Virus record (IMG/VR): IMGVR_UViG_3300025117_000036
Span: 57,860-121,859 of that record
Strand: one strand, 5' to 3'
Source of the DNA: a virus
DNA length: 64,000 nt
Made by a program: the position numbers and the translations under genes. The first letter of the stretch is position 1. Every line of letters begins with the position of its first letter. The notes under the pieces were generated by a model that was given only the letters and a program-made list of their open reading frames with translations, had not been told where the DNA came from and did no database searches. Below are positions 2,104 through 57,996 of this stretch, piece by piece.

Positions 2104-2379
2104 ATGAATAAAAATAATTTTTTATACGTTGTTACAATGTATCGTTATGCAAATAAAGAAGAACATTCCTATGTTCTAGGTGTATACGATAACCCCAATG
2201 AAGCAATCAAGCATGGAAAAGTAGAAGAATCTTGGCGAGGAAACAAATATACTTGTGAGGTTCTTCGTCTTAAATTAAATGATACTACCAATGATTTCGA
2301 TGAAATTATTCTTTCGGTTGAGCGAAATAAAGCCGATGATAGTATTGCAGAAATGAACTTCTTTGATTGGTGTCCATAA
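2104..2379 (+). CDS. hypothetical phage protein
   Basis: 91-aa ORF with AGGA RBS, operonic. Confidence 0.7.
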   Translation: MNKNNFLYVVTMYRYANKEEHSYVLGVYDNPNEAIKHGKVEESWRGNKYTCEVLRLKLNDTTNDFDEIILSVERNKADDSIAEMNFFDWCP

Positions 2380-2380
2380 A

Positions 2381-4444
2381 ATGAAACGTATTTATCGTAA
2401 TCTAGACTTCGATGATGTTTTAATCAAACCTATTCCTTCTCAGGTAAATTCTAGAGAAGAAGTAGATATTTCTGTAAAATTATCTGATAATTTTACTTTA
2501 CAATTTCCTCTAATTGCATCACCTATGCGAGGTATCGTAGATGCTAATTTTGCATCTGCATTATCTGACTTGGGAGGCATTGCAATTCTTCATCGTTTTT
2601 ATAATTCAAAAGATGAATTATATTCTGAATCTAATACTTTACTTCAAACAAATAAAAATTTCGGTATGTCAATTGGATTAAACGATAATGATTATATAAG
2701 CATCTTAGATCGCTATCAACCCAAAATTTTAGTAGTAGACGTTGCAAATGGCTATACTGAATCATTATTGTGCTTCTGTGAAGAAATAAAAAAATATATT
2801 ATCTCTAATAATCTAAACACCCTACTTTGTTCAGGTAATGTGTGTACTGTGCAAGGAGTAGAGAATTTAAGAAATTCAGGGGTGGACATTGTTAGATTTG
2901 GGATTGGGTGTTTTACTAAAGGAACCAGAATTCTCTTATCTAACGGAACTTATAAAAACATAGAAGATATGATCATTGGAGATAGAATTATCAATAAAAA
3001 TGGAAATCCTGCAACCGTTAAGAATGTAATATATAATGGAAAAAAGAACGTTAGAAAAATAAAAACAAATCATTTTTATAAAGAAACATTTGTTACCCCC
3101 AATCACAAATATTTATTGGCAAATATAAATCAAGAAAAACTCGCAAGTAACGGTTATTTATCGGCAATTAAAGATATTGCCTGGAAAGAAATTTGCAATG
3201 CAGATAATACTACCGCATTATTTCCTGCCAAAATTAATTTTGAATTAAAAGATACGTTTTTAATTAATCTTTATAAAAGAAGCGGCGGAAATTGGAGAAC
3301 CGGATATAATTACGCATTAGATATAAATCTAACGCCCTCCTATGAATTGGGTTATATTTTTGGATCGTTCTTAGGAGATGGAAATAGCAATACCCCCTAT
3401 TATAAAAAATCCCATAGGGGCTTTATTAAATGGTATTTTGGATATTCTAAAGATAGAGCAATAAAAAAACTTCCTCTTTGTGTTGAAAAAATATTTAATA
3501 AAAAATTAAAAGTTAATAATACTAAAAATACAATAATTTATACATTTAATTATAAACCTTTTGCCGATTTTTTAAAAGAATTTGGCAGTAAAGAAAATAA
3601 ACAATTACCATCATCTTTACTTGTAAATAATCCTGAATATTTAAAAGGTATTTATGACGGATTAATTGATTCAGATGGAAATATAGAAAAAAAATCAGAT
3701 GTAATAACATTTAGCAATACTTCAATATATCTTGGAGAATTATTTTCTATCTTGTCATTTTTAATCAATGGGTCGTTACCCGTTGCATATGAAAGAAAAA
3801 TAACAACGGGATTATCAAATATGAATTTAGAAAATTGTAAAGATTCCTTTGCATATAAAATATTAAAACAGCCAAATAGGAGAATTTATAATAATAAATA
3901 TATATTAGTAAAAATTTTAAAAAATGAAACAGAAAACAATGATATATTTGAAGATGTATATGACTTAGAAATAGACGACGATACTCATAGCTTTATTGCA
4001 AATAATTGTATTGTTCATAATTCTGGAGGTCTATGTACCACTCGTCTTGTTACTGGAATTGGAAATCCAAGTATTTCGGCTTTACAAGAAACATCTCAAA
4101 TAAATGATGTAATTATCTGTATGGATGGAGGAATAAATTCGAGCGGCAACTTTGTAAAAGCAATTGTGGCTGGTGCAGATTTATGCATGGCAGGATCGAT
4201 TTTTGGAAAAACTTTCGAAAGCCCTAATGATGGTAGTATATTCGGAATGGCGAGTCGTAAATTAAATGAAATGATGTATACTCGAATTAAATCAATTGAA
4301 GGAATTGAAAAAACCGTCAAGAAAGAATATTCTCTTGAACAATTTGTAGAAGAATTTTCATGGGGAATTAAAAGTGCCGCAACCTATTTGAATGCAAGAA
4401 ATCTATATGAAATTTGGTTAAATGGAACATTCATTTTAAAATAA
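2381..4444 (+). CDS. guaC: GMP reductase / IMPDH-family enzyme containing an intein
   Basis: LDFDDVLIKP, ASPM, GGIAILHRF, VDVANG, GNV, GIG|SGGLCTTR catalytic loop, DGGI; no CBS domain; ATG at 2381 preferred; guaC versus guaB is not certain. Confidence 0.8.
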   Translation: MKRIYRNLDFDDVLIKPIPSQVNSREEVDISVKLSDNFTLQFPLIASPMRGIVDANFASALSDLGGIAILHRFYNSKDELYSESNTLLQTNKNFGMSIGLNDNDYISILDRYQPKILVVDVANGYTESLLCFCEEIKKYIISNNLNTLLCSGNVCTVQGVENLRNSGVDIVRFGIGCFTKGTRILLSNGTYKNIEDMIIGDRIINKNGNPATVKNVIYNGKKNVRKIKTNHFYKETFVTPNHKYLLANINQEKLASNGYLSAIKDIAWKEICNADNTTALFPAKINFELKDTFLINLYKRSGGNWRTGYNYALDINLTPSYELGYIFGSFLGDGNSNTPYYKKSHRGFIKWYFGYSKDRAIKKLPLCVEKIFNKKLKVNNTKNTIIYTFNYKPFADFLKEFGSKENKQLPSSLLVNNPEYLKGIYDGLIDSDGNIEKKSDVITFSNTSIYLGELFSILSFLINGSLPVAYERKITTGLSNMNLENCKDSFAYKILKQPNRRIYNNKYILVKILKNETENNDIFEDVYDLEIDDDTHSFIANNCIVHNSGGLCTTRLVTGIGNPSISALQETSQINDVIICMDGGINSSGNFVKAIVAGADLCMAGSIFGKTFESPNDGSIFGMASRKLNEMMYTRIKSIEGIEKTVKKEYSLEQFVEEFSWGIKSAATYLNARNLYEIWLNGTFILK
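2909..4021 (+). mobile_element. intein with LAGLIDADG homing endonuclease (371 aa)
   Basis: N-terminal CFTKGTRILL, block B VTPNHKY, LAGLIDADG motifs GSFLGDG and GLIDSDG, C-terminal VYDLEI...HSFIANNCIVHN followed by +1 Ser. Confidence 0.95.
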
Positions 4445-15515: not shown

Positions 15516-18500
15516 TTATGTTTGAAATAGTTGCGCTCCTCGTGTATAACCACGTTTTGTTAAACTATTGTTTAATTGTTTGATAACCTCATTAGCCACG
15601 ACTCTAACATCACCTAGAACATTTTCATCTAAATTGCCTTCAACATTAATTAAATTTTGAATTACAATATCTCCAACGGAACTTATGTTTCCCCCGATTA
15701 TATTTGTAGTTAAAGAATTTAATAACGAAGACAATCTATCTCCTCGTAAGAATGTATCGGCTCTAAACCCACCCGTAACCATTTCTGGTGAGAAACCATA
15801 TTTTCTACCACCAGTAACCATTTCAGGAGAACTAGGATCATACCTAAATCCACCAGTAACCATCTCTGGCGAAAAGCCTTGACCTTTTCTACCACCAGTA
15901 ACCATTTCAGGAGAATCTATAGGATCGGCTCTAAACCCACCTGTAACCATCTCAGGAGTAAAACCCTCTCGTCCATTACCTCTAAACCCACCAGTTACCA
16001 TTTCAGGAGTAAAACTTTCTCCTTCTGCCCTAAATCCACCAGTAACCATCTCAGGAGTAAAACCACGATTGGCTTTTCCAAAAGTCCCATTATCATTACC
16101 ACTATCACCAGGAACATATGGTTTGCCACTACTGAAATCGCTTTTTCCAAGAATAACATCTAAAAGATTGTTATACTCTTCCAATGCTCTTACAGCCTCA
16201 TTCCACGCACGAACAATATCTTCTTCAATGCCGGAACCATAAACTTCATTCCATGCTACCAATTCTTCATATAAATCTGGCCCCATTTGCGCCATTCGTT
16301 CTAATGCGGCTTGACCAATCAAGCCAGATTTACTTAAAAATTCATCGATTGCATCAATAGTGTCTTGCAAAACATCATATTCTTGATCTAATAAGTCAAA
16401 TTGGGTTTGTAATAAGGTCTTTTGGTTTTCGATATATTGTTTATATAATTCATATTCTTCGTCAAGACGATTTTCCGTTAATTCTATTTCGTGTTCTCTT
16501 TGAGTTTCATCTAAATCAGAAAGTTCTTCTTCTAGTTCTTCCCGTAATTCCAATTGACGCTTTTTTGATTCCGCTGAATCGTCTAATGCTAGTATAGCCA
16601 ATTCTTTTTGAAGTTTTTGAATAGATTTATTTTTATCTGCAATTTCTTCTTGATAATCTAATTCATCTTCTTGTGTTTGAAGAATTTCTTTTCGAGCATC
16701 GATTATCTTTTCATAATCTTCTAACTGTTTATCTAAAGCGTCTTGCTGTTGCTTTAGTATTTCTTGTTCTTGACGGAGAGCATCTTGCTTTTCACGAATC
16801 AATTCTTTTTCAGCTTCTTTTTCTTGCCGAATAAGATTAATAATCATCTGGTAGAGGTTTGCGCCGGAATATGTAGGTTCTTCTTTGGCTTTTTCAGCCC
16901 CACCTCCACCACCGCCACCTCCACCACCGCCACTTTTAGGCGGCTCAGAAGGTGTACCTTGATGCGCATTTGCCCAATCATAACCCATTGAACCATATGC
17001 AATGCCTTCATCGTCTACTGTTACATGAAAACGAATATAATAATCACCAGCCGCCGCCAATGCCGCTAATCTAACTCTATCTAAAACAGCAATGGCTTCC
17101 TCACCCGCGCCTGACATAGCCAATGTAACGAATTCGGTCATGCCTTGAACAACGGCAGAAGTATTTGCATCAATAAGGCCCCAGGCTGTTCCAATATCGT
17201 CCATCATTTTAAAAGCCGCTTGCTGTATTGCTAAAGCTTGAGCGGGGTGAAGACGACTTAAATCCATTTGCATAACACGTTGTAGCATCATTCCATAAAT
17301 AATGCGTCGTGTTGCTAATTCATGTTCAGCGGCAAGTGCATCAACCGCCCTAGAGGTATTGTTAAATTCTTCTTTTAATTTAATTAACTCAGCCCTTTGT
17401 TCATCAGAAAAAGGCTGTGCTTCAACCCTCATAATTTGTACTCTTAATTCCGCTAATTTATCAACAAGTTCATTATGACTTTCTATATAACTATCACGAG
17501 CATCGGTCATACTTGTATCTAAAGAAGCCGCAAGATCACTAAAAAGACCAGCAATTTCATTGCGCGCATCTTCGGTAGCAGGAATTAAATCATTTTTAAT
17601 CATCTCGACCCATGCACCAACAAGGTCTGCTTGTATATACAATTCAGCACTATAAGGATTAGCTTCAGAAACACCTCTAGCTTGCAAAGCAACTAAATCT
17701 GCTTGTGCTTGAATATACGCCCTTACTGCTTCTTCGTTTAGTACTAATTGATCTCCTTCAAGTACAAGAAAATCAGTATAATCCTTATTGACAGCAGATA
17801 ATGCCGCAATGTCATCAGCAGATAATTGTTGTCCACTTTGCGATTTGCTTAATAAATCTAAATAAACTTTTAATTCAGTATTTAAATTTGTAATTATTGT
17901 AGATAAATCGCCAAACCCCCCCGCAATTTGAGGGGCAATAGTTAATGGTTTTGGAAGATTAACGTTACCGCCAACATCTTTCCAATCATCAACCTCTGAT
18001 TTCATTGCTCCCCTTCTACTTACACCAACATCTTGCCAGCCAACAGAAATATCAGCTAATACATTAACATAATGTTCATATTCAATTATAAGAGACTTAG
18101 CAGCAGAAATTTCATTATTTAAAGTCTCATATTCTTTACCCATTAATCCGGTAATATCTTTATGAGTCTCTAAATATTTACCTAGTTGAGTTAATTGTTC
18201 TTCGGGAGTGCCATATAAATCAACTCTTTGCCACGCGGGGCCAGCCCCACTCATCGTTTTTGCTTCTAGGAATTTTTTTTGTTCTTCATAGGCGCGTCTA
18301 TTCTTATTAATGAACTCTATTTCTTCAAATTTTGCTTTTTCTTTAAGCCATTCGATATTTTCATCAATCGCTTGACTATTCCTATCAATTGCGTCTGAAT
18401 ATAGTGTAATGCCCTCAGTTAACCCACCATATTTAGTATTTACAATTGTTTGTATATCAAGCAATCTAATTAAATCATCTGAATTTTTATTTTGTTTGTT

Positions 18501-21500
18501 TGCTAATGCTTCATATTCTTTGGCTAAACTAGAAAGTTCGTTTTTATTATCGTCTGTTTGACGTTTTAGTTTTTCAAAATTAGTATAGGTTTCAACCGCT
18601 GAAGTATTCAATCTATTAAATAAAGCGATTAAACCAACAATAGCTAGACCTAAAGTCATTCCTCCTAAAGAAATAGACAACGCATTTACTGCCGTACTAG
18701 TCATAGTGACAGTACCAGTTAAGCTAATAAACGCGGTAATTAATGTATATATTGTACTAGTTAATCCAGGTATAACCAAAGCAAGTTTAGTTATCATGAA
18801 AGTAGCTAAAGCTACTAATGCTATATTAAGAACCCCCAAATTATCTGCAACTTCTAATAACACAATACCAAACTCAAGAAATTTTTTTACCAATTCTTCA
18901 GTAATGGTATCTTGAACTACTTTTTCCCAAGTCGCAGTAAATTTATTAGTGGTTGCCTCTAGACCTTCCATATATATACCGAATCTTTGGGCGGCAAGTC
19001 CAGAGGATTCAGTTTGAATTTTTTGTGCTTCTAATACTTGGTTGTAATTCTCCATAAGTGCGATGAAATTTTCACGTTGCCGAACTTTTCTGTTGCTTTC
19101 GCACCGTGAATATGCTACTAACCGTTATTCTTCAACGGCGATTAAGTATTTCTACTTAATTCTGCAATTTCAATATGTTATAGTTGCAGAGCAGACCATA
19201 TCTTTTTCTTATATAAAATAAGAAAGATGACGCGGACATTTATATCACTATAAATATCCAATTGGTCGTTACGGATTTTCAAAAATTATAAAAACTGACT
19301 AAAAATAGTGTGTAGTTTAGTCAAATCTTTTCGATAAATTTCAATTAATTTTATATTATTATCTTTGCAAATACTTCTTTTTTCTTCCATTCGTTTATAA
19401 TAAACAGGTTTTTCAGGCATTCCAAAAAATTCTATAAATACACTTTTATTTATTACCCAATCAACTCTTTTCAAACCACATCTTTTATCATTACAATGTA
19501 GGTTATATAATTCTTCTTTTTTATATTCGATACTATTATTTATTAAATAATTTGTAATAGATAATTCAGATTTTGAAAAGCATAAATCGTTATTTAAAGA
19601 ATAATAAATATTAGATTCTCCATATAGTGAGGAATTTGCATCTAATTGTGCTAACTCACAAGCATTTCTGTAACCCCCAAAACGCCTTTCATATGTTTTC
19701 ATAGATGGAAGTCCAAATGCAGCAAGTTCTGATCCATAAGGAGTTCTCCCTAACTTATTGCCTAATTCTTGTAATTGCTGTATCATAATATTTTCATCAT
19801 ACCATTTTACGCTCTTTTCTTTACTCTTGTGCAATCCAAATTTTAACGCCATCGTTCGTATACTTTCAGGAGTTCTATTAAAAAAATATTTTTCACACAA
19901 ATATTTATTTGTATAATCAGGATAGTATTTTTTTAATAATGCTATATTTTCATCAGTCCAATCTTGATTTATTTTAAATCCTAATTTACTTATCTTAGTG
20001 CGAATTGCAGATAGTGTTCTATTTAATTTTTTAGCAATATCAGCATAAGACATCAAATTATAATTAGAAATTATAAAGTCAATTTCTTTAGACGTATAAT
20101 CTCTATTTTTTTCAACAATTATTCCTAATTCGGAAGCTTTATGTCGTATTGAATCAATGTCATTATTTTCTAGTTTTTCCATCAATAAAACATAATTTCC
20201 ATAGGGATATAACTCCTTTAATATTTCAAGTCTATTTTCAGTCCATTGATATCTGCCTATGCCTAGTTCTGTAACCAATTTATAAATAGCATTTTTATTC
20301 CTGTTTATATGTTTGGCTATTTCATCAATGGAAATTTTTCCATAGTTATTTATTAAATATTCTTTATCTTGCGTTGTAAATACTTTTATTTTTCCCACGA
20401 TTATTTCTCCAGAAATATTTGCTACACATCAAATATTTCTAATAAATTATTGTTTATAATTTTTGAATCTTTCCTCGGAGTTGTCTACTTCTAGAGTTTC
20501 CCCGATATGGTCATCTTCTGAAATTTTTATTTTACCACACATTTATGCATGATAAAAAATGCAAATTTCCATATGTCACCATATGTTCTGGCATTCTATT
20601 TTTACCAGCAATAGCATTTGCAACAGCACTTTGTTCTACCTCATTCATGTTCTCCCACTTACCAGCAATTTCGTCTAAAACATCGCCCATTGGACGGAAT
20701 GAGGTTTCTGAATCACGTAGTTTAATGTTTACTAAGGAGAGTGCTTTTTCTACATCGTTGATATTTGTAACTTCATCTTCGAATAATTTACCTAATTTTA
20801 TTGCTTGGAGTCGTGCGAATATGGTTTTGAAGGATTCCAATTTTGTTATCGCCAAGCTTTTTATCTTGACTTCTTATGCTTTTCCATTGCATAAGTTCGG
20901 CGTACATTTTTATCCACAAGGGATAACGGATACTCTTGGAGAGATTATATTTATTCACTCTCTACGCTCTACGGTATCAAAAAACCTTTCGCTATTTTTT
21001 TGATTACCTCGGTATTTTCCATTTTTATTATTTGGAGGAATTCACCGATTTTACCCATTCATAATTTTATGCATTACTGTATAAAACGGCAATTAATCTT
21101 ACCAATGCTATCCGCACTTTTTCTAGTGGTTGCCGAAACGATTGACACGTAACTAGCCAGCTCGTCAAAGCTGACTCCGGCTTGCTGTGCAGAATTTGCA
21201 GACCTTTGCATAGCACTACTAATTTCTTCCACTGACGTCGCATACTGATTGTCTAATGCCCAATCTGTTACTTCGAGTTCGACAAAACTCTTATGACCTC
21301 AATAGAGGCGTTTAGGAATTTCTTCCTAAATCAGCAATTTTAATACCTCACATAGTATTTGCTGTTCCGACTGTATATTCACCCTCATAAGAGGGGGATG
21401 ACTTCAGGATACTTGTTACCAAATACCCCCCGCAGTCTGTAGAGGTTCTTTATTTTATATTTAATGAATATATTCTTCAAAAATAAACAAAAGATTACTT

Positions 21501-23990
21501 AAATCTTTTTTATATAAATCCAAAAGTGAAACGTTATTATTTTTACAAATTTCCATTTTATTTTCTGATTTATCGGCATACCCCTGATCACGCTCCAATC
21601 CAAAATATTCTACAACTAATCCATCTTGTAAAACCCAATCGGCCCTATATTTTCTGTCAAAAAACGGAATAAATTCAGAATATAAAACTTCTTTTGTATA
21701 TGAAATATTATTATCAATAAAAAAATCAGTAATATCTTTTTCTGGAATAGAATAACATAAATCTCCATTTTTAGAAAAGCATCTTTTTCCCATACTGGAA
21801 TCCGAAAATATATCTACATTGGCTAAAACTAAGGCATTTGTATAACTTCCAAAACGATCATAATAAGTGTCAACAGAAGGGAGTCGCCTATCTTTTTGAA
21901 CATCGTCTATGGACGGAGTCCTTCCTAATTCTTCTTCCAATATCTTAAGTGATTGTAATAAATCATCATCTGAAAAATCCATCAATATTTTTCTTTGACG
22001 AAATGGTTCTATTTCCAATATTCTACAGCGTCCTTCAACAAAAATAGCTGATCTTTTTAATTTTCTACCCATTTCTATTGATGTCATATTCACATAATTT
22101 TGTAAAATAAATCTATCTTCTTCATCCGTAGCAAATTTTACAGCAGTAAACTTTTCACCATTGGATTTTATTCTATTTAAACCCATTTCGCGAGCCTTTT
22201 TGCCAATTGCCTTCCAGCTTTTGTTTAATGTTTCGCAAATAAAAATCTTATTTCCGGTTGGAAAATTATCAATCAAAAATTGTTTATCTTCTTCTGTCCA
22301 CCAAAATCCAGATTTTACATTTAGTAAATTAGCCATTCCATGAATACAAGCTTGAGTTCTTCCTAAATCTTTTGCTATTTCTTTATAGGTTTTATGTAAA
22401 GAATTTTTCTTTATATATTCTTTTTCTTCTTCAGAAAAATATCTTGATCCATCCGATTTTATATTTCTTTTTAAACCTAATTCACTTGCCTTACTAGCAA
22501 GAGAACCTTTACTTCTTTTAAATCGTTCAATTAATTTTTCCATTGGCTCTGTTGGATATAATTCTATAAATAAATTTAAATCTTCTTCGCTCCAAACATT
22601 TTTCATATCAATTTTTTATTACTTCCTTATCCATTATTTTATTATCTTATTATTTCATTAAATATAAAACAAAGTCTTCCTTCGGTCTGACCTTTGTGAA
22701 TAGGCTTTAACCGATATAGTCATCTTCTAATCGGCAATATTACAAAAAATTATATCAGTAAATATAATAATTTACAATACCGCCAACCCATGTGTTACCA
22801 CATGTTCTGGCAAAACTTACCAGCTTTGACACAACATCTTGTGTATCTTCCGCTTCCAACTTGAAACCATTAATAATTGCAGTTAAAGCTTCTGTAGATT
22901 CTGCCGCTTCCATATTTCCAAGTTTAGACATCATCATGGTAGAACGCATTAACTCGCTAATTTCTTCTACTGTTTTACCTTGCCTCGCCCACTCCAGGGA
23001 ACCCCGACTAATCTGTAGCGTTGTAGACCCTAGCTCTAAAGCCAACTGATTATATTTACTTGCCAACTGACCAATTTTTTGACTACTCTCCCCCGTAACA
23101 ATTTGAGTATTAGTTAATTCTTTATTCAAATCTCGAATATACTCAATACCATCTCGAATCTTTCTCATAGTACCATAAATTGCCATCGTGCCTACGCCCC
23201 ATACGGCAATTTTCTTAATACCAACATCTAACATCGAAATAAAGTTAAATCCTGATTTATTAGCACTTCTCATTTTCTCGGCGGCTTGGGCAACTGAATT
23301 ACCTAAATTACCAAACGCTATTCTAACATCCTCTAACGTTGCCTTCCCTCTTTTAAATTGATCAAAAATAGCATTATAATCTTTCAACGCAGATTGTATA
23401 TCTGTCTTATTAAAAACGTCTTTATTTTTTATTTTCAATCTTTCTAACGCTTGCTCTTGCCTTTTAATAGCAATTTCTTTTTGACGATCTAATTTTTCAT
23501 TTTGAGCATAAGCCTCACGCAACATTCTTTCTTTTCTCAGATTATATTCTTGATCCATCTGATAAGCAGAACGATACATTTGTTCTTGTTGCTTTGCAAA
23601 TTTTTCAGCTTCTTTTCTTGCTTGATCAATATTTTGAGCGGTACTACGAGATGCTAATTCCCACTTCCCTCCACTTTCGGCAATTTTCAAATACGCTTGT
23701 TGTACCAAATTCAATTTGTCACGATATTGAACGATTGCCCCTGTCACTTCTCCCGATGGGCTTTCAAAAATCTTAACTTTTCCAAATGCTTGCACATCGC
23801 CAAAAAGTTTTTCTACTTCTCTTTTTGCACTTTGAATAGCTTCATGATTTACTCTATCATCAAACAGTACAATTTTTCTTCCCGCCGCTAATTGATTTAA
23901 TGTGGCTTGTACTTTTGAAAACTGTTGTTGAAGTTGTGCTTGATCTACAATCGCTTCAACTATAACTTGATATTTATTACTAGGTGGCAT
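15516..23990 (-). CDS. tape measure protein, four exons: complement(join(15516..19085,20604..20837,21101..21260,22819..23990)), 1711 aa
   Basis: TMP core motifs run continuously across the junctions (VSKLV|ALDNQYATS; KSADSIG|ESFKTIFARL; NAIAG|VRQRENFIALMENY); exon lengths 1172+160+234+3570 = 5136 nt in frame; lies upstream of Dit. Confidence 0.92.
15762..16064 (-). repeat. seven in-frame (S/T)PEMVTGG(FR/RK) peptide repeats near the TMP C-terminus
   Basis: Seen directly in the translation; synonymous codons and linkers vary between copies. Confidence 0.95.
19086..20603 (-). mobile_element. group I intron 3 in the TMP gene (IA-like, carries an endonuclease ORF)
   Basis: P1 CUGGU/GCCAG with U-G at the 5' splice site; P3 GAUGAC/GUCAUC; P4 AUCGGGG/CUCCGAG; R CCGUAACGACCA; S AAGAUAUGGUC; extra stem between P7 and P3. 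Confidence 0.9.
19286..20398 (-). CDS. intron-encoded putative homing endonuclease
   Basis: Tandem Myb/HTH-like W/F-T-x-E repeats, LGRTP...LPS..TY..RFG repeat, C-terminal nuclease-like RVDWVI...FIEFFG. Confidence 0.8.
   Translation of the reverse strand: MGKIKVFTTQDKEYLINNYGKISIDEIAKHINRNKNAIYKLVTELGIGRYQWTENRLEILKELYPYGNYVLLMEKLENNDIDSIRHKASELGIIVEKNRDYTSKEIDFIISNYNLMSYADIAKKLNRTLSAIRTKISKLGFKINQDWTDENIALLKKYYPDYTNKYLCEKYFFNRTPESIRTMALKFGLHKSKEKSVKWYDENIMIQQLQELGNKLGRTPYGSELAAFGLPSMKTYERRFGGYRNACELAQLDANSSLYGESNIYYSLNNDLCFSKSELSITNYLINNSIEYKKEELYNLHCNDKRCGLKRVDWVINKSVFIEFFGMPEKPVYYKRMEEKRSICKDNNIKLIEIYRKDLTKLHTIFSQFL
20838..21100 (-). mobile_element. group I intron 2 in the TMP gene (ORF-less, 263 nt)
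   Basis: 5' splice site UUGGU| with guide GCCG; P3 AAUGGGUA/UAUCCGUU; P4 AUCGGU/ACCGAG; P7 GCGUA/UACGC; ends ...ACAAAAUUG|GAA. Confidence 0.88.
21261..22818 (-). mobile_element. group I intron 1 in the TMP gene (carries an endonuclease ORF)
   Basis: P1 CUGGU/GCCAG; P3 GAUGAC/GUCAUC; R CUACAGACUG; S AAUAUACAGUC; ends UAACAGAUUG|G, rebuilding a GTG Val codon. Confidence 0.92.
21461..22606 (-). CDS. intron-encoded putative homing endonuclease
   Basis: Same architecture as 19286-20398: WSEED/WTEED repeats, LGRTPS...LPSVDTYYDRFG, C-terminal RADWVL...VVEYFG. Confidence 0.8.
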   Translation of the reverse strand: MKNVWSEEDLNLFIELYPTEPMEKLIERFKRSKGSLASKASELGLKRNIKSDGSRYFSEEEKEYIKKNSLHKTYKEIAKDLGRTQACIHGMANLLNVKSGFWWTEEDKQFLIDNFPTGNKIFICETLNKSWKAIGKKAREMGLNRIKSNGEKFTAVKFATDEEDRFILQNYVNMTSIEMGRKLKRSAIFVEGRCRILEIEPFRQRKILMDFSDDDLLQSLKILEEELGRTPSIDDVQKDRRLPSVDTYYDRFGSYTNALVLANVDIFSDSSMGKRCFSKNGDLCYSIPEKDITDFFIDNNISYTKEVLYSEFIPFFDRKYRADWVLQDGLVVEYFGLERDQGYADKSENKMEICKNNNVSLLDLYKKDLSNLLFIFEEYIH

Positions 23991-24020: not shown

Positions 24021-25034
24021 TTATAAATTAAACATGGTATCAATAACTTCTTCGGTATGATCCTTAGAGTAATCTAGAGTTGTCTTAGGGTCTGAGTGAT
24101 GTAAAAATATTTGAACTTGCTCTAATGGAAATTTTTTAGGAAGACCAGTATTTTTATCTATAATTCTGGTATCTGCACCTTGCAACATACATTCCGTTCG
24201 ACTATGCCTATAAGAATGGGGAAAAATATTTATTTCTTTTCCTTCCAATTCGGTTATAACTTTACGAATTTTCATAGTCCATTCATATAGAATCTCATAT
24301 GATGCTTCTCGCTTATTTTCACCCTTTCCTACAACCCATAAACAGTCTATATTATCTTCACCTCTTTCATCTAACCATTGTCTAATCAATTCTTTTGTAT
24401 CATCTAAATATACTAAAGAAAATACCTTTCCTCGTTTTCCTATTACCGAATTAGTTTTATTTCCATTTAATAAATTATATTTTTTTATTTGAGCAACTTC
24501 GTTTCGTCTTGCCCCACTATCAAACATAATCATATGAAGTACGGCAAGCTGTATTTCTCCCATTTCAATTAGCTTTTGCCGCACTCGCATAATCTGATCA
24601 AAAGTCATAAAAAAATCATTCTCGTCTGTTCTTACTCTTTCTTTAGGCAAACCTTTTACTTTCTTTGCGACATTGGTTAAATACTCATATTCATCACTGT
24701 CTTCAATATAAGTTAACATAGACCGACACGCACTCATTATGCGATTTGTTCTAGCATTAGACATTTGACAGTCATCACTTAACCAGAGACTCAATTTTCT
24801 AAAATCTTTTTTAGATAAATTTAAAAAGAATTGATTATCGCAAAATCTTTTTACAAACAATGCAATAATCCTAAGATCGTTTGCATACTGCATTAATGTA
24901 GTTTTCTTTATTTTTCTCTGACGATACTCTTGAAGAAAATCGTCAATTATTTCTAAATTTTCTACATTAACCAATTTATATTCTTCTTCGTTATAAATTC
25001 TATTATAAATTTGTTTTTTTTTCATTTTTTCCAT
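24021..25034 (-). CDS. tyrosine recombinase (XerC/D-integrase family)
   Basis: SGARRNEV (R), IGKRGK (K), PHSYRH (HxxR), LHHS, TTLDY (catalytic Y). Confidence 0.93.
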   Translation of the reverse strand: MEKMKKKQIYNRIYNEEEYKLVNVENLEIIDDFLQEYRQRKIKKTTLMQYANDLRIIALFVKRFCDNQFFLNLSKKDFRKLSLWLSDDCQMSNARTNRIMSACRSMLTYIEDSDEYEYLTNVAKKVKGLPKERVRTDENDFFMTFDQIMRVRQKLIEMGEIQLAVLHMIMFDSGARRNEVAQIKKYNLLNGNKTNSVIGKRGKVFSLVYLDDTKELIRQWLDERGEDNIDCLWVVGKGENKREASYEILYEWTMKIRKVITELEGKEINIFPHSYRHSRTECMLQGADTRIIDKNTGLPKKFPLEQVQIFLHHSDPKTTLDYSKDHTEEVIDTMFNL

Positions 25035-48129: not shown

Positions 48130-49431
48130 TTATACGAAAATATTCAAAGCATCTAAAATTCCTAATTCTCCATCAATAATAAAAACCTGTGTCCTTTGAT
48201 CATTTTGAACATAACCCTTACTGGCACTCCATCTTGAAAAACCGGAAATAGTAGGCCAGCGAATAATTTCTAAAGAACCCTGATTGTCATATTGCATAGC
48301 TCGATGTAAATGTGCCAAAAACCAATAATATTTATTACAAAAACTCCAATTTTCCTTTGATTCTGTTGTCATTAAAGAAAGAGCGTTTTTAATGACAATA
48401 TCATGAGAAAATCCAAGTAATACTTTATCAAACCGATAATACTTTCTAGGTAGTTGACTTATATCTACGGTTACATCTTTATTATCTTTAAAATAATATT
48501 GAATAGCCTTCATTACACCATACATTGATTGATGATCATGATTTGAAACTACATTAACAATTTTTACTTTAGATATTTCTAACAAACTCAAGGTTCCAGA
48601 AATAATTAGTTCGATTGCTTTATCAAACATTTCAAACCAAAATGAATCATTGTCTTGTGCTGTTCCAGCCGTAGTTGTGCCGGATAAATTGTCGAAATTT
48701 AAAAAGTCGTTTCCGACAACAAAAACTATTTCTTGAAATCTTTGATTAGCAACTCGCTCTTTTATTTGAGCAATTGCATTATTGAATGAAAGTTCAGCAA
48801 TTTCAATGTTGTATTCATTACCTGTAGAAGCTTGAGTTGCCAATAATCCAAGATGCAAATCTGCAATTGGAACAACTAAAACCTTATTGTTTGGGAAATA
48901 AAAGTTTGGTTTTATCTTAATTGGAGATAAATTTTTTATTTTTAAACTTTCAAAGAGCCTATCTACTAATTCAGTAGACCATTCGAGTTGTTTTTTGGGA
49001 GCAACAGTAATCTTAGATTGATAAAGAATTGTCCGATCTACTCCACCTTTCTGTAAACCATGCCACAAATTGTTGCGCGCGTAGACAAGATTCCACTTAT
49101 TCGAATCAAATCCATGCGCATTCAATAAAAATTCAGGAGTTTTTTCTTGTGCATTACAAATTTCTATAAGTTTATCCGATGTAATACTACCATCTTTATG
49201 ATATTCTATAGATTCTCCATATTGATTGTAGGCATATGCACCTTCTTCTTCTAGTTCTTCTTTTCGATCTTCATCGTAAATTTCTTGAATTTTTCTCTTA
49301 ATTTTTTCTCTACGAAAAGCAGAACGAATTGCATCTTTTGAAGAATATCCAAATTTCTTAGATAGTATGTCCCAAGATTCGTCTTTATTCTTATTTAGAC
49401 AATATTCAAAAATTCGCTGTTTCAATTTCAC
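48130..49431 (-). CDS. calcineurin-like metallophosphoesterase
   Basis: ADLHLG, GNDF, SNHD, SHD, AHLH. Confidence 0.85.
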   Translation of the reverse strand: MKLKQRIFEYCLNKNKDESWDILSKKFGYSSKDAIRSAFRREKIKRKIQEIYDEDRKEELEEEGAYAYNQYGESIEYHKDGSITSDKLIEICNAQEKTPEFLLNAHGFDSNKWNLVYARNNLWHGLQKGGVDRTILYQSKITVAPKKQLEWSTELVDRLFESLKIKNLSPIKIKPNFYFPNNKVLVVPIADLHLGLLATQASTGNEYNIEIAELSFNNAIAQIKERVANQRFQEIVFVVGNDFLNFDNLSGTTTAGTAQDNDSFWFEMFDKAIELIISGTLSLLEISKVKIVNVVSNHDHQSMYGVMKAIQYYFKDNKDVTVDISQLPRKYYRFDKVLLGFSHDIVIKNALSLMTTESKENWSFCNKYYWFLAHLHRAMQYDNQGSLEIIRWPTISGFSRWSASKGYVQNDQRTQVFIIDGELGILDALNIFV

Positions 49432-49621
49432 CTCTTATCTAATTATTTTTTATAAATAAGCACAGAGAATCCCGCTCATTCTCTGGCACTCTCACAAGCT
49501 AATCGCGGGGCTTGCTATTTGCACGTATACGCGCAAATAAAATGAGATTTTTATTAATTAAATTTAATGTTAGTATTAATATTAAATAAATTTTTAGTTT
49601 CGATAATGCTCCTTATCGCTA

Positions 49622-50719
49622 CTACCAATTAACCTTGAAGCTGTACTGCATAAGGTTGGCCTCGGCCATAGACCCCTTGTACGTCACCACGCGATAAGTG
49701 TCCGTAGCTCCGTCATAAGTCAAATCGCCATAACCGCCATCCTCAGCCGCGTCATCCAGGTAAATGGGTTTCGTCCAGGTTGCCCCTGCGTTCGCTGAAA
49801 GCCAAATCGCATTTCGCCGGGGGTGGCTGGTGCCCGGACTAGTCAGCACAAAACCGCACATAATCAGGTGAGTGTCCGTCCACCAGTTCGCCTCACCCTT
49901 GAGATGAGCATCGGTAAACATCCGATTGCGGCCAATCACGTTGATCGACGACTCTACTCTGTATAGTGGCCCCCACGTCGCTCCAAGATCATCTGACTGC
50001 TGCCGTCTGCTGATTGCATTGGAAACGTCTCGGTGATAGACAATAATTTTGTTGTCGCCGATATACTCAGCAGCCGCTTCGTGCGTTCCGTCGGTATAGA
50101 CCGACATATCACTCACCCAGGCCCAGGTCGCGCCGTTATCCTCGGACTTGTAAAGGCACATTTTGACGGTGCTGTAGATCGTCCCGTACACTCTACCGAC
50201 CATGTAAATCGTGTCGCCTAAGATAAAGTGCTGCTCGGTCATCCCCGAATAATCGTCTTCTACCAGCGATTGCCCGGTGAAGTGGATCTGCTCCCAGGCT
50301 CCCCAGGTTATGCCGCCATCTGTAGACTTGATGCGCCAGGTCCCGTGCATGGAAATCGGAGCAGTGTAGTTCGCCTTCCAGGTGTGCAGGTAAACATCAC
50401 CGTTCGGAGCCTGGAAAATATAGGTGTCACCCGGTCCCTCCGGGTCTTCCGCTCCCGCATCCGGGTAGGCCGGGAAGCCAGCAACGGGATTACCGTTCAG
50501 GTCCGTGTCTTCCGCTGTCCAGGTTGCGCCGCCGTCATCGCTAAAACGGATATGCACCACGTCGTCCAGGTTCTCGGGGTGTGATGTAGACTCTTCGTAA
50601 ACCAGAATAGTATTGCCGTCTGACAATGTTTCCATCGTCGCACGCCCAAACCAGCGCGTCGATTCTGATGCGATAACACTGGACGTTAGTTCTGAAAGCG
50701 TAGGCCCGCCAGCGACTAA
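49622..50719 (-). CDS. sialidase-like BNR/Asp-box beta-propeller (start uncertain; possibly reached by -1 frameshift)
   Basis: Five Asp-boxes: SDDGGATW, STDGGITW, SEDNGATW, SDDLGATW, SANAGATW; DGGYGD. Confidence 0.85.
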   Translation of the reverse strand, partial: LVAGGPTLSELTSSVIASESTRWFGRATMETLSDGNTILVYEESTSHPENLDDVVHIRFSDDGGATWTAEDTDLNGNPVAGFPAYPDAGAEDPEGPGDTYIFQAPNGDVYLHTWKANYTAPISMHGTWRIKSTDGGITWGAWEQIHFTGQSLVEDDYSGMTEQHFILGDTIYMVGRVYGTIYSTVKMCLYKSEDNGATWAWVSDMSVYTDGTHEAAAEYIGDNKIIVYHRDVSNAISRRQQSDDLGATWGPLYRVESSINVIGRNRMFTDAHLKGEANWWTDTHLIMCGFVLTSPGTSHPRRNAIWLSANAGATWTKPIYLDDAAEDGGYGDLTYDGATDTYRVVTYKGSMAEANLMQYSFKVNW

Positions 50720-51489
50720 GGGTTTATGTCCGGGCCTCCTATCAGGCGGTCCGCATAGATGTTTGCCATGTCCGTATCTGACCAAATAGAGCCAAACCGG
50801 AAAGTGTTGTATGCCAGCCAGCCTTTCCACACACTTGAATTTTCGGACGCCAGCCCAATCCTCATTATGCTGGGCGTCCCCGCCCATACTCCAAACCCTG
50901 TTTTGGTGGTCCCTATCTGAGCGCCGTTGAGGTACACCTTACCTTCATCGCCGTTCGCAGAGTCTTTCCAGGTAACGCCCCACATAATCCAATCAGTTGT
51001 GGTTTGTGCGCTTCTTTGCAATCTAGAAACCCCCCCAATGACAATATTTGCTTGCAACCCCAGAGTGCCGTGTTTGGACAGCTCTATAAAGTTGCTGCCA
51101 TCAACTCTATAAATCGCTAATGTTTTGTCAATGCCGTCGCTCCAATCTTCAGCGGCGGATGCTCTTACAAACACAAATAATCCACCAATCGCGCCATTCC
51201 AAATAAGGGCAAGTGAGCCGAGATTGCTATTTGCGGTTGATCCGTCCAGATACGGCGCAAGCCCCCCTGTCGCCGGTCCGGCCCCGTTTTGCAAAGTCCA
51301 GCTTGCCAGAGTGCCATCGTGCGCCGCGCTTACAAACGCTAGGATGTCTGTGCCAGAAGCAATATTTGTCAGCGGGTAAACCTCTGACGCTCCGTACGTG
51401 TCGCGCAGGATTTCGGCGTAGGTTGGCGGGGTGGCTCCGGTCGCCCGGCCCCAGCTTCCGGCCATCAACGCTCTACGCAGTCTCAACAT
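50716..51489 (-). CDS. LamG/concanavalin-like domain protein
   Basis: APYLDG, WIMWGVTW...KVYLNGAQIG...WKGWLA; GGGAG RBS abutting the right recombination-like site. Confidence 0.8.
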   Translation of the reverse strand: MLRLRRALMAGSWGRATGATPPTYAEILRDTYGASEVYPLTNIASGTDILAFVSAAHDGTLASWTLQNGAGPATGGLAPYLDGSTANSNLGSLALIWNGAIGGLFVFVRASAAEDWSDGIDKTLAIYRVDGSNFIELSKHGTLGLQANIVIGGVSRLQRSAQTTTDWIMWGVTWKDSANGDEGKVYLNGAQIGTTKTGFGVWAGTPSIMRIGLASENSSVWKGWLAYNTFRFGSIWSDTDMANIYADRLIGGPDINP

Positions 51490-51555
51490 AGCGCACGCTC
51501 CCAGGTTCGATAATACAAATTATCGCAACTATATATATACATTATTTCACCAACA

Positions 51556-52062
51556 TTATTTAACTTGTTTAAAATGTTGTAAATGTGCCACACTAGAGCC
51601 TCCAATTATCGCCAAAGATGTGTAATTACTTAAAACAGGCACAATATCCATCATATTTTGAGCAACAAAACCAGAACTAGAACCAGATGCGCTACCGTTC
51701 GTAGGATTAATTTCATAATATACATCTCCTACCCTAGCGGCAATTTTGGTCGCAACTGTACCTGTAGGCAAAGACACATTTACGCTAGTTCCATTTAAAA
51801 CAATCATGGAACCACCAGTAAAATTATATGCTTTTTCAATTGTTGTTTGAGCAATTTTTTCTACTGTTTTATCGGCTGTAACTCGATAATATTCATTTGT
51901 GTCAAGATCAATACCTACTGCCCCAATATAACCAACAGGAGTTGTAGTATCATTAATCACTGAACCGCTTGTTAAATCACTTGTTCGAAATAAATAAGTT
52001 GGGGGATTTCCCGGTACAAAAGTAACTGCCATATAAAATTCTCCTTTCATCATCCTCATCAT
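51556..52062 (-). CDS. putative virion protein
   Basis: AAGGAG RBS before MAVTF (true start probably 52032); SGS-rich. Confidence 0.6.
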   Translation of the reverse strand: MMRMMKGEFYMAVTFVPGNPPTYLFRTSDLTSGSVINDTTTPVGYIGAVGIDLDTNEYYRVTADKTVEKIAQTTIEKAYNFTGGSMIVLNGTSVNVSLPTGTVATKIAARVGDVYYEINPTNGSASGSSSGFVAQNMMDIVPVLSNYTSLAIIGGSSVAHLQHFKQVK

Positions 52063-52659: not shown

Positions 52660-53439
52660 TTACTCACATAAATATTTTTTTCTATTTAAATTTAAACGAT
52701 AACGTTTTTTATCTCTTGTTTTTCTATGAGTATTTTTTTCTAATTTTTGGCATTCTATACACATGTTTTGACTTCTATAAACTTTAGAAAATTCTTTACC
52801 GCAAATCTTACAATATGGAGGATAAAAAGAAATAATATTAGATATATCTTTAACTATTATTTTTGGTTCAGAATCATCATCGGCAGTAGTAAATGTTAGA
52901 ACAAAAGAATCTGTTAGTTTTATATTATTGATAAATCCTTTTTTATAAAGAATATAAAAAATATCTTCGTTTCTTTTCTTAACGGTGTGGGCGAGACGAT
53001 GAATTGTATTAGCATTTTCTCCAATATAATATTCTTTAGATTTACTTTTTGAATCCATAAGTCTAAAATATTTACCTAATACCAACATTGTAAATAATAT
53101 TTTTTCATACCGATAATTATTTAAACTCCGAATACTTTCTAGTTCACGTTCAGTAATCGGAACATCTTTAGGAACTCGTAAAGGATATTCTCTTGATCTA
53201 GCAATAGCTTTTTCTATTTTTAGGGAAGAAAGAATAGAAGAAAATTCGCCTGCATGTTTTTCACAAAATTTACATAATTCTTTTCTTATTTCACTTTTCT
53301 TTTTACCAAAATAACGATAATATTTTGCTAAAATAATTAAATCTGACATAGACATAAATCTAGAAAAACCATTTTTTATTAATTTTTCAGCATATTCTAG
53401 CTCATTCAATATTCTCATAAAAATAATAATCATCCTCAT
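52660..53439 (-). CDS. conserved protein coupled to the RNA polymerase gene, C-terminal Zn finger
   Basis: ILNELEYAE, ILAKYYR, EKILFTMLVLGK, CKIC...CIEC. Confidence 0.7.
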   Translation of the reverse strand: MRMIIIFMRILNELEYAEKLIKNGFSRFMSMSDLIILAKYYRYFGKKKSEIRKELCKFCEKHAGEFSSILSSLKIEKAIARSREYPLRVPKDVPITERELESIRSLNNYRYEKILFTMLVLGKYFRLMDSKSKSKEYYIGENANTIHRLAHTVKKRNEDIFYILYKKGFINNIKLTDSFVLTFTTADDDSEPKIIVKDISNIISFYPPYCKICGKEFSKVYRSQNMCIECQKLEKNTHRKTRDKKRYRLNLNRKKYLCE

Positions 53440-56266
53440 TGTCTAAATTATAATTATAATCAGAATCATTTTTCATTACTTCTATTTCAGTCATTGAATA
53501 ACTACTATATAAATAGTTTATGTTACCGTTATCATCTAATACAGGAATAAAGCATTTTTCTTGTTTATTTTTTGCAATATTTTCAATTATTTCATTGCTA
53601 AATATTTGCCATAAAAAACTCTTATTGTCGCCAGGAAAAGCTACATAGCAAATATCTACTACTAAATTTACTAATTCGGCCCCATTTGATGATATTTCAT
53701 ATGCTTTTTGACGAATGAATTTATTGAATTGATCAATTGTTTTAAAATAGGCGGCAACATCTGTTTGAGAAGTGTTCCCTCCAGCATAAGCATTAGAAAA
53801 TTTTCTTTTTTCCTTTTTATAAATACGATAGAGAGCATCTAATTTTTTGTATTTTTCTTCATCGAATGAAATACTTGAGTCTTTTAATATTTGAATGTTT
53901 TCGTCTGTTATGGGAATAATAGTGGATATTTTTAATTGTTTAAATTGTTCTTCCATATACCAAGCAATTTTATTCATTAAACAATTAGTTTCCAAGAGAG
54001 GATTATATCTTTGATGTTCGAAAATAAACTTACATTCTTCTACATCTGTAGTAATTCCGGCATTTTCTAAAACTTCATTTATTTCTTTATTAAAACGCAT
54101 ATGAGAATCTTTAGAATATGCTTTTTTAAATTTTATATAATTTCGATTATAGTGACTATATACCCATCTCATGAAATAAGGACGTTTATTAATTACAATG
54201 CGATTTAAAAATTTTAAATTTTCTTTTTCTTCATCTTCCATTTCTTCTGATATTTTTTTCCAGCGAGTCCAATGTATCGGAAATGGTTTAATAATCAGTC
54301 CTTTTGTTGCATCTATCGTAGAGCCTTGTTCTTTTCGAAAACATTTAAGTCGATTGATTAATTCTGTATATTCAGGAGAATCTTTTTCAAAGTCAGGTAA
54401 CATAGCAAATGCAGTAGTTGCAACATTAGTTACAAATCCTACCCTATTATTAAATCCGTTTAAATCAGCTTTATATAATTCTTCTTCAATAATTTCTTGT
54501 TTTGGAGATTTCTTACTATCATAATAAATGGGCAATCCACCAGGAAGATTGGTTATAATTTCGGAATTATTGGTGATACATACTATATCACCATCAAAAT
54601 CTGAACCAGATTGATATAGACAATCATTTCCAAAAACATTATAAACAATGCAATTATTTAAATATTTATACCATTCTTTTATTTTAGAATTTTCTTTTAA
54701 GTTGATAGGATTAATTTCGCTTTTCCAGGTTAAAGGAGCGCGCATAGCAACTAATTTATTTTCTTTTTGATCTAGCCAATAGCGATTATAATGTTCATCT
54801 CTATTTAGTAATCCTTTTAGTGGAAGATTAAATAAATTTTCCATAAAAGCATAAGGATCACTTACTGCCATTGTATAAAAACCATGAATTAAAAGATTAC
54901 CAATATAAGATTCTTTTATTTTTTTATTTAAACTATGAATAAGATAATTTTTTATATAAGGATCGTGAATTAATTCGTTATTGAGAATTAATGCTTTTGT
55001 AACAACATCTTGAATTTTATTAAATACATTATCTAAATTATCTAAATCATTTGTATTTACATTAACATTTGCATTATTATATTTCTGATTAGAAAGTTTT
55101 CCTAATAAGTATAATAATGTATATTCAATTTTGTTTTTTATAATATTACTAAAAAAGTCTAAAGTTGGTTGACATAATTTCTTAATCGTATCGTTATCTA
55201 AATCTAAAACTTGAACAAATTGATAATTCAAAAATGTATAAGGCGTTTCAGTTTTTGGAGTAACCCGGCTAACTCCCCAAGTTAAATTATTTTTTTTGCA
55301 ATTAGCAACATAATGATCCAGTGAAAAAAATGCTTCCCATAATTTAAATTGACTTTCAGTTAGAATAATGTCTGCATTTCGAAGGTTATACTTATTTCCC
55401 CAAATATCAGTAACAAAATGTTGTTCTGCTATTTCTTCAGCAAAACGATGGAAATCAAAAACACAAACCATCCCTTTAATAAAATTGGCTCGAATAATAA
55501 ATGCAGATGGAATATAATTTAAACCTAAATCATCAGCCCATTGTTTTGCAAATTTAGGAGATATTAATCCTTGCCCATCCCATAAATTAAATTCTATTTC
55601 TTTTTCGCAAGGAATGACAATATCATCGCCATCTTCTATTTCTTCAATATAATCTACCATTTCTGTTCTTTTTATTTTTAAGTCGGGTACAACACAGAAA
55701 TAAGGAGTAGATACCTGTAATGTAGCACTAGCATTTAAACCAAAATAAGCATTAAATTTAGCAGGAGAAATTAGAATTGAATTTCGATCATTATTTAATA
55801 TTTCTTTTAATGGTTTTTCATATTCTTCTGAAATCCATAATGAATTATTGCGCCTTGCCTGTCCTGCTCCACACAATAAACGTACAAATCTTATTCCATT
55901 AATATAAAATCCATTTTGACCAAGATATTCATAATGTCTTAAATCACTTACAGAAACAGAAATAATTTCAGGAACAAATAAAAGAGAATCAATTTGATTT
56001 TCTATTTGTAACAATGTCTCTGAATTTTCAGAAGAATGTTTTTTCCGTTTTATTTTTCTTTTTTCTAAGAGTAGATCATCAATTTTTTCTTGAGAAAAAG
56101 AAATATTTTTAAGTTGTCTTAGAGAACGAAATACTTGTGAATCTCCAATAGAAACAATTTCTCCTGATTTACGGGCATCGTCAATAGTCAGAGTAAGATT
56201 ATATTTTGAATTTTTTAGTCGTGATGTAGATATTTTAAAAATATAAAATTGCTGTAGCTTTTTCAA
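53402..56266 (-). CDS. yonO: YonO-like single-subunit (RdRP-like, two-barrel) DNA-dependent RNA polymerase
   Basis: DGQGLISP, AFIIR, KGMV, SQFK, LNYQFVQVL, RAP, GSDFDGD catalytic motif, IDATKG. Confidence 0.9.
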   Translation of the reverse strand: MKKLQQFYIFKISTSRLKNSKYNLTLTIDDARKSGEIVSIGDSQVFRSLRQLKNISFSQEKIDDLLLEKRKIKRKKHSSENSETLLQIENQIDSLLFVPEIISVSVSDLRHYEYLGQNGFYINGIRFVRLLCGAGQARRNNSLWISEEYEKPLKEILNNDRNSILISPAKFNAYFGLNASATLQVSTPYFCVVPDLKIKRTEMVDYIEEIEDGDDIVIPCEKEIEFNLWDGQGLISPKFAKQWADDLGLNYIPSAFIIRANFIKGMVCVFDFHRFAEEIAEQHFVTDIWGNKYNLRNADIILTESQFKLWEAFFSLDHYVANCKKNNLTWGVSRVTPKTETPYTFLNYQFVQVLDLDNDTIKKLCQPTLDFFSNIIKNKIEYTLLYLLGKLSNQKYNNANVNVNTNDLDNLDNVFNKIQDVVTKALILNNELIHDPYIKNYLIHSLNKKIKESYIGNLLIHGFYTMAVSDPYAFMENLFNLPLKGLLNRDEHYNRYWLDQKENKLVAMRAPLTWKSEINPINLKENSKIKEWYKYLNNCIVYNVFGNDCLYQSGSDFDGDIVCITNNSEIITNLPGGLPIYYDSKKSPKQEIIEEELYKADLNGFNNRVGFVTNVATTAFAMLPDFEKDSPEYTELINRLKCFRKEQGSTIDATKGLIIKPFPIHWTRWKKISEEMEDEEKENLKFLNRIVINKRPYFMRWVYSHYNRNYIKFKKAYSKDSHMRFNKEINEVLENAGITTDVEECKFIFEHQRYNPLLETNCLMNKIAWYMEEQFKQLKISTIIPITDENIQILKDSSISFDEEKYKKLDALYRIYKKEKRKFSNAYAGGNTSQTDVAAYFKTIDQFNKFIRQKAYEISSNGAELVNLVVDICYVAFPGDNKSFLWQIFSNEIIENIAKNKQEKCFIPVLDDNGNINYLYSSYSMTEIEVMKNDSDYNYNLDNEDDYYFYENIE

Positions 56267-57857: not shown

Positions 57858-57996
57858 TAAAATTATGAATTATAATAATTATAATCACGAAGATAAACTA
57901 AATAATTATAGTCTAATAGTAATGTCGGCAAAAGTGCGAGAATATTTCTGGCAACTAAAAATGGTAAAAGTCTATATTTTTTTGCCATTTCAAGAG

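Follow-up and report, generated by a model that had tools for sequence, protein, structure and literature searches.

In the dif modules of Acinetobacter, accessory genes lie between two inversely oriented 28-bp sites, each made of distinct XerC and XerD arms of 11 bp around a 6-bp spacer (11-6-11), and no recombinase is carried in the module (PMC13141974). Recombination was seen between identical or nearly identical spacers and is governed by spacer identity, and single modules that replace one another share their left and right spacers, for which cointegrate formation followed by resolution was proposed; as far as the parts of that report drawn on here go, dif modules were described in 2026 as unique to Acinetobacter (PMC13141974). 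The present analysis deals with a slot of comparable layout in a tailed phage, found in a window of 64,000 nucleotides (positions 57,860 to 121,859 of IMG/VR record IMGVR_UViG_3300025117_000036), where two 11-6-11 sites bound a GC-rich cargo encoding a lectin-fold protein and a sialidase-fold propeller. Three close relatives, the window phage included, hold three unrelated cargoes between the same pair of sites, which makes this a real, exchangeable and site-bounded cassette.

As in the described dif modules, accessory genes stand between two 28-bp sites with different 6-bp spacers, alternative cargoes share the left and right spacers, and the module has no recombinase of its own. Unlike them, the carriers are tailed phages rather than Acinetobacter Rep_3 plasmids or chromosomes, there is a single slot instead of an array, one arm consensus (AGTWNCGATAA) takes the place of polar XerC/XerD arms in inversely oriented sites (PMC13141974), and the cargo consists of phage accessory genes. 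The cassette works like a dif module but, as it fails XerC/XerD polarity and plasmid location, it is not classed as one. No dif-module-like slot in a tailed phage was found in the literature searched, mainly at abstract level and weighted towards open access.

Other Xer-dependent systems share single traits, again as described in the parts of the sources cited. Archaeal XerA sites consist of two 11-bp inverted repeats around 6 bp, one enzyme acting on both arms (PMC5357621), and in the XerA/dif, XerS/difSL, XerH/difH and XerL systems the gene sometimes adjoins the site (PMC5357621, PMC9765430), as in the cellular contig L105 considered below; these systems have a single chromosomal dimer-resolution site, whereas the phage slot has its cargo between two non-matching sites and lacks a recombinase gene next to it. 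Like the integrative mobile elements exploiting Xer (IMEX), namely CTXphi, TLCphi and dif-type double jelly-roll phages (PMC5357621, PMC12715192), this is a phage with dif-like sequence that may use host Xer; however, IMEX integrate a whole genome through one attP and without an integrase, while here there are two PF00589 genes, two internal sites and a 1.9-kb cargo. A preliminary description of this DNA, made from its letters alone, had called the route integron-like, which did not hold: there is no IntI or other integrase beside the site, no attC and no array but a two-sided single slot, the nearest recombinase lies about 25 kb away, and the tail-module enzyme, the only one scanned, has no integron-integrase match in NCBIfam.

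The elements at the cassette are as follows:

51503..51530, minus strand: upstream site, on the coding strand AGTTGCGATAA-TTTGTA-TTATCGAACCT
49596..49623, minus strand: downstream site, on the coding strand AGTAGCGATAA-GGAGCA-TTATCGAAACT, its first arm overlapping the last cargo stop codon
49624..51502, minus strand: foreign cargo, 1,879 bp, 54.6% GC
50716..51489, minus strand: LamG/ConA-like lectin-fold protein, 257 amino acids (aa), ending NP-stop
49622..50719, minus strand: BNR/Asp-box beta-propeller of sialidase fold, 365 aa in the -1 frame
48130..49431, minus strand: exonuclease/phosphoesterase-like backbone gene downstream of the cassette (phrog_704, E=5e-60; 97% identical in relatives)
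51556..52032, minus strand: small gene upstream of the cassette, possibly of a family found before variable accessory genes in other phages

Loci L010, L011 and L012 were retrieved by the exonuclease gene (97% protein identity), L010 and L012 being near-duplicates. The backbone of the close relatives is 92-97% identical to the window, and both sites with both spacers are kept at the same place. Between them, L010 and L012 hold a 306-aa LamG protein and a 139-aa gene (1,484 bp and 57.6% GC for the L010 cargo), and L011 a 315-aa leucine-rich-repeat protein and a 209-aa gene (1,583 bp, 57.0% GC). Site ends aside, nucleotide similarity among the cargoes is restricted to the first ~80 bases, and backbone similarity stops at 51492 and 49625 against L010 and at 51482 and 49618 against L011. 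Compared in pairs, the three relatives show identities of 0.77-0.94 over the 200-nt backbone flanks, 0.79-0.96 over the sites and 0.47-0.52 in the inner part of the cargo; right beside the sites, the sequence on the cargo side (0.48-0.62) has diverged far beyond the backbone. That relatives would differ in their cargo here was a prediction of the preliminary description, and they do hold different GC-rich cargo between this pair of sites; no empty site was found, all three close-relative loci holding cargo.

Regarding the sites themselves, each lies two mismatches from the consensus AGTTGCGATAA-N6-TTATCGCAACT, and two matches of this quality came up in 0 of 100 shuffles. Only two such sites exist in the 121,859 bp of the genome, the next best position having five mismatches. 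Within each site the arms differ from each other by two mismatches, giving a near-symmetric 11-6-11, and the spacers TTTGTA and GGAGCA differ at four of six positions (five of six if inverted). The arm consensus was drawn from 13 distinct arms, GATAA being present in 12 of them, and is symmetric, i.e. without XerC/XerD polarity. In the window, L010, L011 and L075, an unrelated phage-like contig, the upstream 15-nt core TAATTTGTATTATCG and the downstream 17-nt core CGATAAGGAGCATTATC are invariant; both spacers are thereby unchanged in all four independent loci, and variation is seen in the outer parts of the arms.

The block between the sites also stands apart in composition, the whole genome having 31.4% GC. 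A maximum-likelihood fit places the GC change points at 49633 and 51505, no more than about 10 bp from the cargo-facing edges of the sites; only three 1-kb bins in the genome exceed 0.41 GC, all of them over the cargo block; and GC at third codon positions is 0.57 and 0.64 in the cargo genes vs. 0.18 and 0.20 in the flanking genes. The fit is tight, as the BNR stop codon TAG (49622-49624) overlaps the downstream site and a GGGAG abuts the upstream site, 8 nt before the LamG ATG. The preliminary description had noted the two near-palindromes, the GC-rich block that they bound, this tight fit and the lack of an evident cassette promoter, and all four observations were confirmed, no convincing promoter being present inside the block and no conserved one found.

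A metagenome scan for the downstream core returned 87 loci, of which two were contigs already retrieved and one was L075 (about 45% GC). Its cargo, 75-82% identical to that of L010, lies between ATGGATGCTAA-TTTGTA-TTATCGGATGG and AGTAGCGATAA-GGAGCA-TTATCAATACC. Over the 100 bp outside the sites, GC amounts to 0.67 and 0.57 in L075 and to 0.25-0.33 in the three relatives; on these figures, donor-type DNA runs past the sites in L075, and the window lineage would have taken only the part between them. Further away, eight loci of about 60% terminase identity were found, two of which extend upstream of the exonuclease gene; neither of these two has a site or a GC island, and site-like matches in the distant-relative records stay at control level. 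Of the core matches in other viruses, 8 of 11 for the upstream core and 1 of 4 for the downstream core fall outside the three relatives; considered as further cassettes, these nine were set aside as chance matches, showing neither similarity to the genome nor a cargo-bounding pair.

On balance, the cargo is probably replaced at dif-like tyrosine-recombinase sites by a single Xer-type enzyme, itself probably not of phage origin, through two crossovers. If a phage or prophage carrying this spacer pair were present in the same cell, crossover at one site would give a cointegrate, whose resolution at the other would exchange single modules. Since the two spacers of a locus do not match, such an exchange is expected rather than the excision and circle formation proposed at first; for the same reason the cargo would not be easily excised or inverted, and an empty site is not expected. 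The symmetric arms with one consensus suit a single enzyme, and the invariance of TTTGTA and GGAGCA, while outer arms vary, fits recombination governed by the spacers. Site-specific capture of a foreign module, as first suggested, agrees with backbone similarity ending at the sites, but the cargo looks like phage accessory DNA and not like host DNA.

Incoming cargo would be read from phage transcripts, with the aid of a short open reading frame (ORF) across the upstream site:

51483..51542, minus strand: short leader ORF, predicted translational coupler, 19 aa, MYIYSCDNLYYRTWERALC

This ORF starts on the phage side, runs as D-N-L-Y-Y-R through the upstream site and has its stop overlapping the cargo ATG. 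Equivalents of 17 aa in L010 and 16 aa in L011 likewise end on the cargo start codon (three of three relatives, window included), while in L075 the leader frame forms the in-frame N-terminus of the LamG gene; at the other end, the last cargo stop codon (TAG) overlaps the downstream-site arm in all four loci. The arrangement in the three relatives resembles integron ORF-11, which, in the part of the source used here, is initiated in the platform, spans the attI1 crossover, takes its stop from the incoming cassette and couples translation (PMC8876359); here, coupling is predicted.

The window cargo would yield a lectin plus, by a -1 frameshift, a lectin-sialidase-fold fusion, the signal being:

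50716..50739, minus strand: -1 frameshift signal, likely programmed; GGAGG, 9 nt, then A AAC CCT TAG

Slippery sites follow the rule X XXY YYZ, from which the present heptamer departs as non-canonical, with C as Y. A complete phage unrelated to the window phage, L120, has the same AAACCCTTAG with GGAG 10 nt upstream, and the LamG stop lies inside AAACCCTTAG in both genomes. Over 31 codons of the -1 frame, the window and L120 differ by 8 synonymous and 6 non-synonymous changes, with 13 of 18 differences at codon position 3, whereas frame 0 contains stops over those codons. In the propeller frame the first in-frame Met comes only after the invariant W16 and R19, leaving no usable earlier start. 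Because slippery site and -1 frame are conserved, the propeller has no usable start of its own and the lectin ends NP-stop, we infer a programmed -1 frameshift producing a 622-aa LamG-BNR fusion.

The labels first given to both cargo genes, LamG and sialidase-like, proved apt. Though without a Pfam match, the LamG protein has an Atlas score of 0.98 to viral Laminin_G_3 clusters and TM scores of 0.63-0.78 to LamG models; its three nearest Atlas clusters are 98-100% viral, and its C-terminal N256 and P257 are unchanged across all 8 aligned homologs, each of which ends NP. The BNR protein matches PF13088 (E=6.5e-12) and PF02012, and its AlphaFold2 model (predicted local distance difference test, 93.4) matches a Micromonospora sialidase in Foldseek (E 4e-16, TM about 0.7), its best PDB sequence match being an exo-arabinanase. 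GH33 sialidases are marked by an Arg triad, a Glu and a Tyr nucleophile. Among 14 BNR sequences, R19, E207, E211, R223, R257, R259, R294 and Y323 are invariant. Like the GH33-type sialidases of Micromonospora viridifaciens (1eus/2ber), the protein is predicted to be an Asp-box propeller with conserved Arg, Glu and Tyr and a lectin-fold partner; unlike them, it shares only 14-17% identity and its partner domain would be joined by frameshift. It is 67% identical to its L120 homolog. The folds and the late-gene context suggest a virion or host-surface role, and the fusion likely acts on host surface glycans.

Three genes of the phage come into question for the exchange:

24021..25034, minus strand: tail-module tyrosine recombinase (PF00589), candidate enzyme only
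C1:31207-32100: second tyrosine recombinase (PF00589)
C1:36011-37081: Sak4-like annealing protein gene (phrog_124)

On sequence comparison, a cellular Xer or mobile-element enzyme is favoured over the two phage recombinases. In L105, a cellular contig with at most a putative link to the host, GCTTTCGATAA-GGAGCA-TTATCATAACC lies beside tig-clpP and 40 bp before an Xer-like gene (L105:3102-4191). Its arms agree with those of the L010 upstream site in 9/11 and 10/11 positions, although the spacer was dictated by the pattern searched for. The L105 layout resembles xerS/difSL, and a site in L069 with the same right arm lies ~180 bp from a different recombinase; both sites possibly represent an undescribed single-enzyme dif class. 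L105 may derive from the Chloroflexota, to which a 30% plasmid match to Thermomicrobium also points; no such site was found near the Thermomicrobium match.

A consensus search had been suggested at the outset; the genome has two sites only, the metagenome adds the L075 pair, and the perfect consensus is sporadic in GTDB. Perfect AGTTGCGATAA-N6-TTATCGCAACT palindromes occur there at nine loci, one of which (L009) is near a tyrosine recombinase gene. An identical perfect site is found once per genome in three Verrucomicrobiota metagenome-assembled genomes (L002:1501, L005:1501, L009:1501); among the others (L001, L006-L008; L004), several are in short Acetobacteraceae contigs and one is in Shewanella. 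These are probably mobile-element sites. The consensus was also considered as a Verrucomicrobiota chromosomal dif and rejected, the core being present in 9 of 61 genomes and the full consensus in 1 of 201; within the portion of a predicted-dif table used here, TTATCG appears in two rows only, both Alphaproteobacteria (PMC3025954). As for the downstream spacer, 68 distinct GGAGCA-spacer sites stood out in a shuffle test (127 vs. 91 +/- 8, GC uncontrolled), but with a positional control they are weakly palindromic beyond the searched core (22.8 vs. 16.8 +/- 3.8 of 63); the signal being much weaker under this control, they are not claimed as one family. A tyrosine-recombinase match was present in 6 of the 87 downstream-core loci, three of these belonging to the training set and no formal background being available; the Pfam scan covered 22 of the 87. 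Paired CCCGATAA-N6-TTATCGG sites 1.1-1.3 kb apart with different spacers were seen in the metagenome contigs L032, L042/L071 and L093, possibly as cellular modules of the same architecture.

Besides the limits just given for L105 and for the GGAGCA-spacer sites, several points weigh against exchange by an Xer-type enzyme. In L075, one arm of the upstream site is degenerate (ATGGATGCTAA) and the block boundaries fall outside the sites. The window has exactly the downstream cargo-side arm of L010 and L075 although its cargo is unrelated to theirs, and a diverged N-terminal RxxxMxG-type motif recurs in all cargoes, so that some cargo replacement took another route, inside the sites. The upstream core also encodes NLYYR, and coding may explain part of its conservation. 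L120 (G004, 61.5 kb) holds a homologous LamG-BNR pair between terminase and portal without the sites, on which the cargo genes therefore do not depend; relatives with the same genes but no flanking sites had been named in advance as contrary evidence, and L120 answers to this in part, given its lack of kinship with the window phage. Among 26 phage loci of the type marked by the upstream gene (of 33 fetched), 25 are variable without having sites, L155, with two site-like matches and other spacers, being the exception. The Sak4-like annealing protein encoded in the genome offers an alternative exchange route, and no recombination product, cointegrate, empty site or cognate enzyme was seen in the loci compared.

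The palindromes might instead be conserved as operator or coding/translation signals and act only as 15-17-bp homology linkers for the Sak4-like protein, an explanation that we consider unlikely. Its gene is indeed present at C1:36011-37081, the upstream core encodes protein at each of the four loci, site-less variability is common at this locus type, and one sigma70-like match (10/12) ends 25 bp upstream of 51530. This weak promoter match is not kept in relatives, however, the last T of its -10 being lost in L010 and L011. An operator is expected to keep its arms while its spacer drifts, and the opposite is observed, with both spacers invariant and the outer arms varying. Coding accounts poorly for the four synonymous positions of AAT TTG TAT TAT that are fixed in 4/4 loci, and in the three relatives ~165 bp of non-coding DNA follow the downstream site.

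It is slightly less probable still that the same exchange is catalysed by a recombinase of the phage itself (24021-25034 or C1:31207-32100), the first of which had been proposed from the start alongside host Xer. In alignment both enzymes have intact R-K-H-R-H-Y-type catalytic motifs, symmetric arms would suit either as a single enzyme, and an own enzyme would be present during infection. Yet the sites also occur in the unrelated phage L075, and the tail-module enzyme, which has a 45.5% ortholog in a distant relative, shows no link to the sites and belongs to a widespread family with matches in 176 phage records, mostly Firmicutes, the site content of these genomes being left aside in the comparison. 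Immediately before the second enzyme lies another kind of palindrome, a perfect 11-7-11 (G000:C1:31159-32100 = L124:5160-6101), but none was seen in front of its 32%-identical ortholog in G072; site-like matches in G072 stay at control level (7 vs. 5), and no upstream-gene homolog was found there. Both enzymes have family members in phages in which nothing indicates the slot.

Least probable by a little is a single capture of the module by site-specific recombination followed by illegitimate or short-homology swaps inside, the sites being maintained relics or having another Xer role (dimer resolution, integration), since, although cargo-side arm and N-terminal motif are common to unrelated cargoes and the window BNR gene ends at the site, two residues short of its L120 homolog, the cargo-side arms differ in L011 and are mosaic in L075 (upstream arm L011-like, downstream arm L010-like), the cargo-side sequence at the sites is far more diverged than the backbone, and the cores have not changed, whereas identity over the 30 nt next to the upstream site has fallen to 0.56-0.77.

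The genome that carries the cassette is that of an SPbeta-like phage, with terminase matches of ~33% identity, a portal and an RNA-dependent RNA polymerase (RdRP)-fold polymerase (PF05183) at window 53402-56266, upstream of the cassette and late genes, which we take to be the YonO-type RNA polymerase of SPbeta-like phages. Searched against its 584 ORFs, a profile built from the L075 upstream-gene family matches the small gene at 51556..52032 best, though weakly (E=0.089), and direct BLAST of this gene against that family gave no significant match. In many unrelated phages, a small beta-rich gene family (QALTQNIRFTLDGT motif, 515 representatives; L127-L159) stands before LamG-type accessory genes of high variability and is possibly an adaptor for virion add-ons. 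No host-diagnostic gene was detected by Pfam among 67 ORFs, and Rfam gave no match. Fifteen sequencing runs share genome words, with no RNA dataset among them; the top two contain 0.70 of the words, about the value expected from the backbone minus the window cargo.

Elsewhere in the same genome, a large sugar-nucleotide/glycosyltransferase cluster extends over about G000:C1 15700-34900 (L195, L196, L124) and includes an epimerase, two GHMP kinases, two SIS proteins, a nucleotidyltransferase, a transaldolase and GT2s; a tRNA-Ile with TAT anticodon adjoins tRNA-Leu(TAA) at L195:11184-11344. At window 15516-23990 a tape-measure-like gene apparently consists of three ORFs divided by two endonuclease-like ORFs (possible introns), the last part having about seven xFTPEMVTGGFR-like repeats near its C-terminus, and an ORF resembling inosine monophosphate dehydrogenase or guanosine monophosphate reductase (window 2363-4444) is apparently interrupted by an intein. 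L010 and L012 have two ~1.2 kb terminase-region insertions (L010:8358-11255) that are absent from the window and L011.

More tentatively, and with a little less than even confidence, we picture unrelated phages of one uncultured subsurface host sharing a standard slot, in which two non-matching single-enzyme Xer sites would serve cassette exchange of glycan-binding and glycan-cutting modules, a leader ORF would activate any cargo, and one spacer may be the host dif spacer. Mosaic phage genomes are usually explained by illegitimate or short-homology recombination. A recombinase that naturally works on non-matching site pairs would be a candidate tool for cassette exchange, and the frameshift-fused lectin/sialidase-fold protein is a second, distinct feature open to testing. 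If the interpretation is true, dif modules would extend to tailed phages and to symmetric single-enzyme sites, and a spacer-coded slot common to unrelated phages would provide a directed route for accessory-gene swapping.

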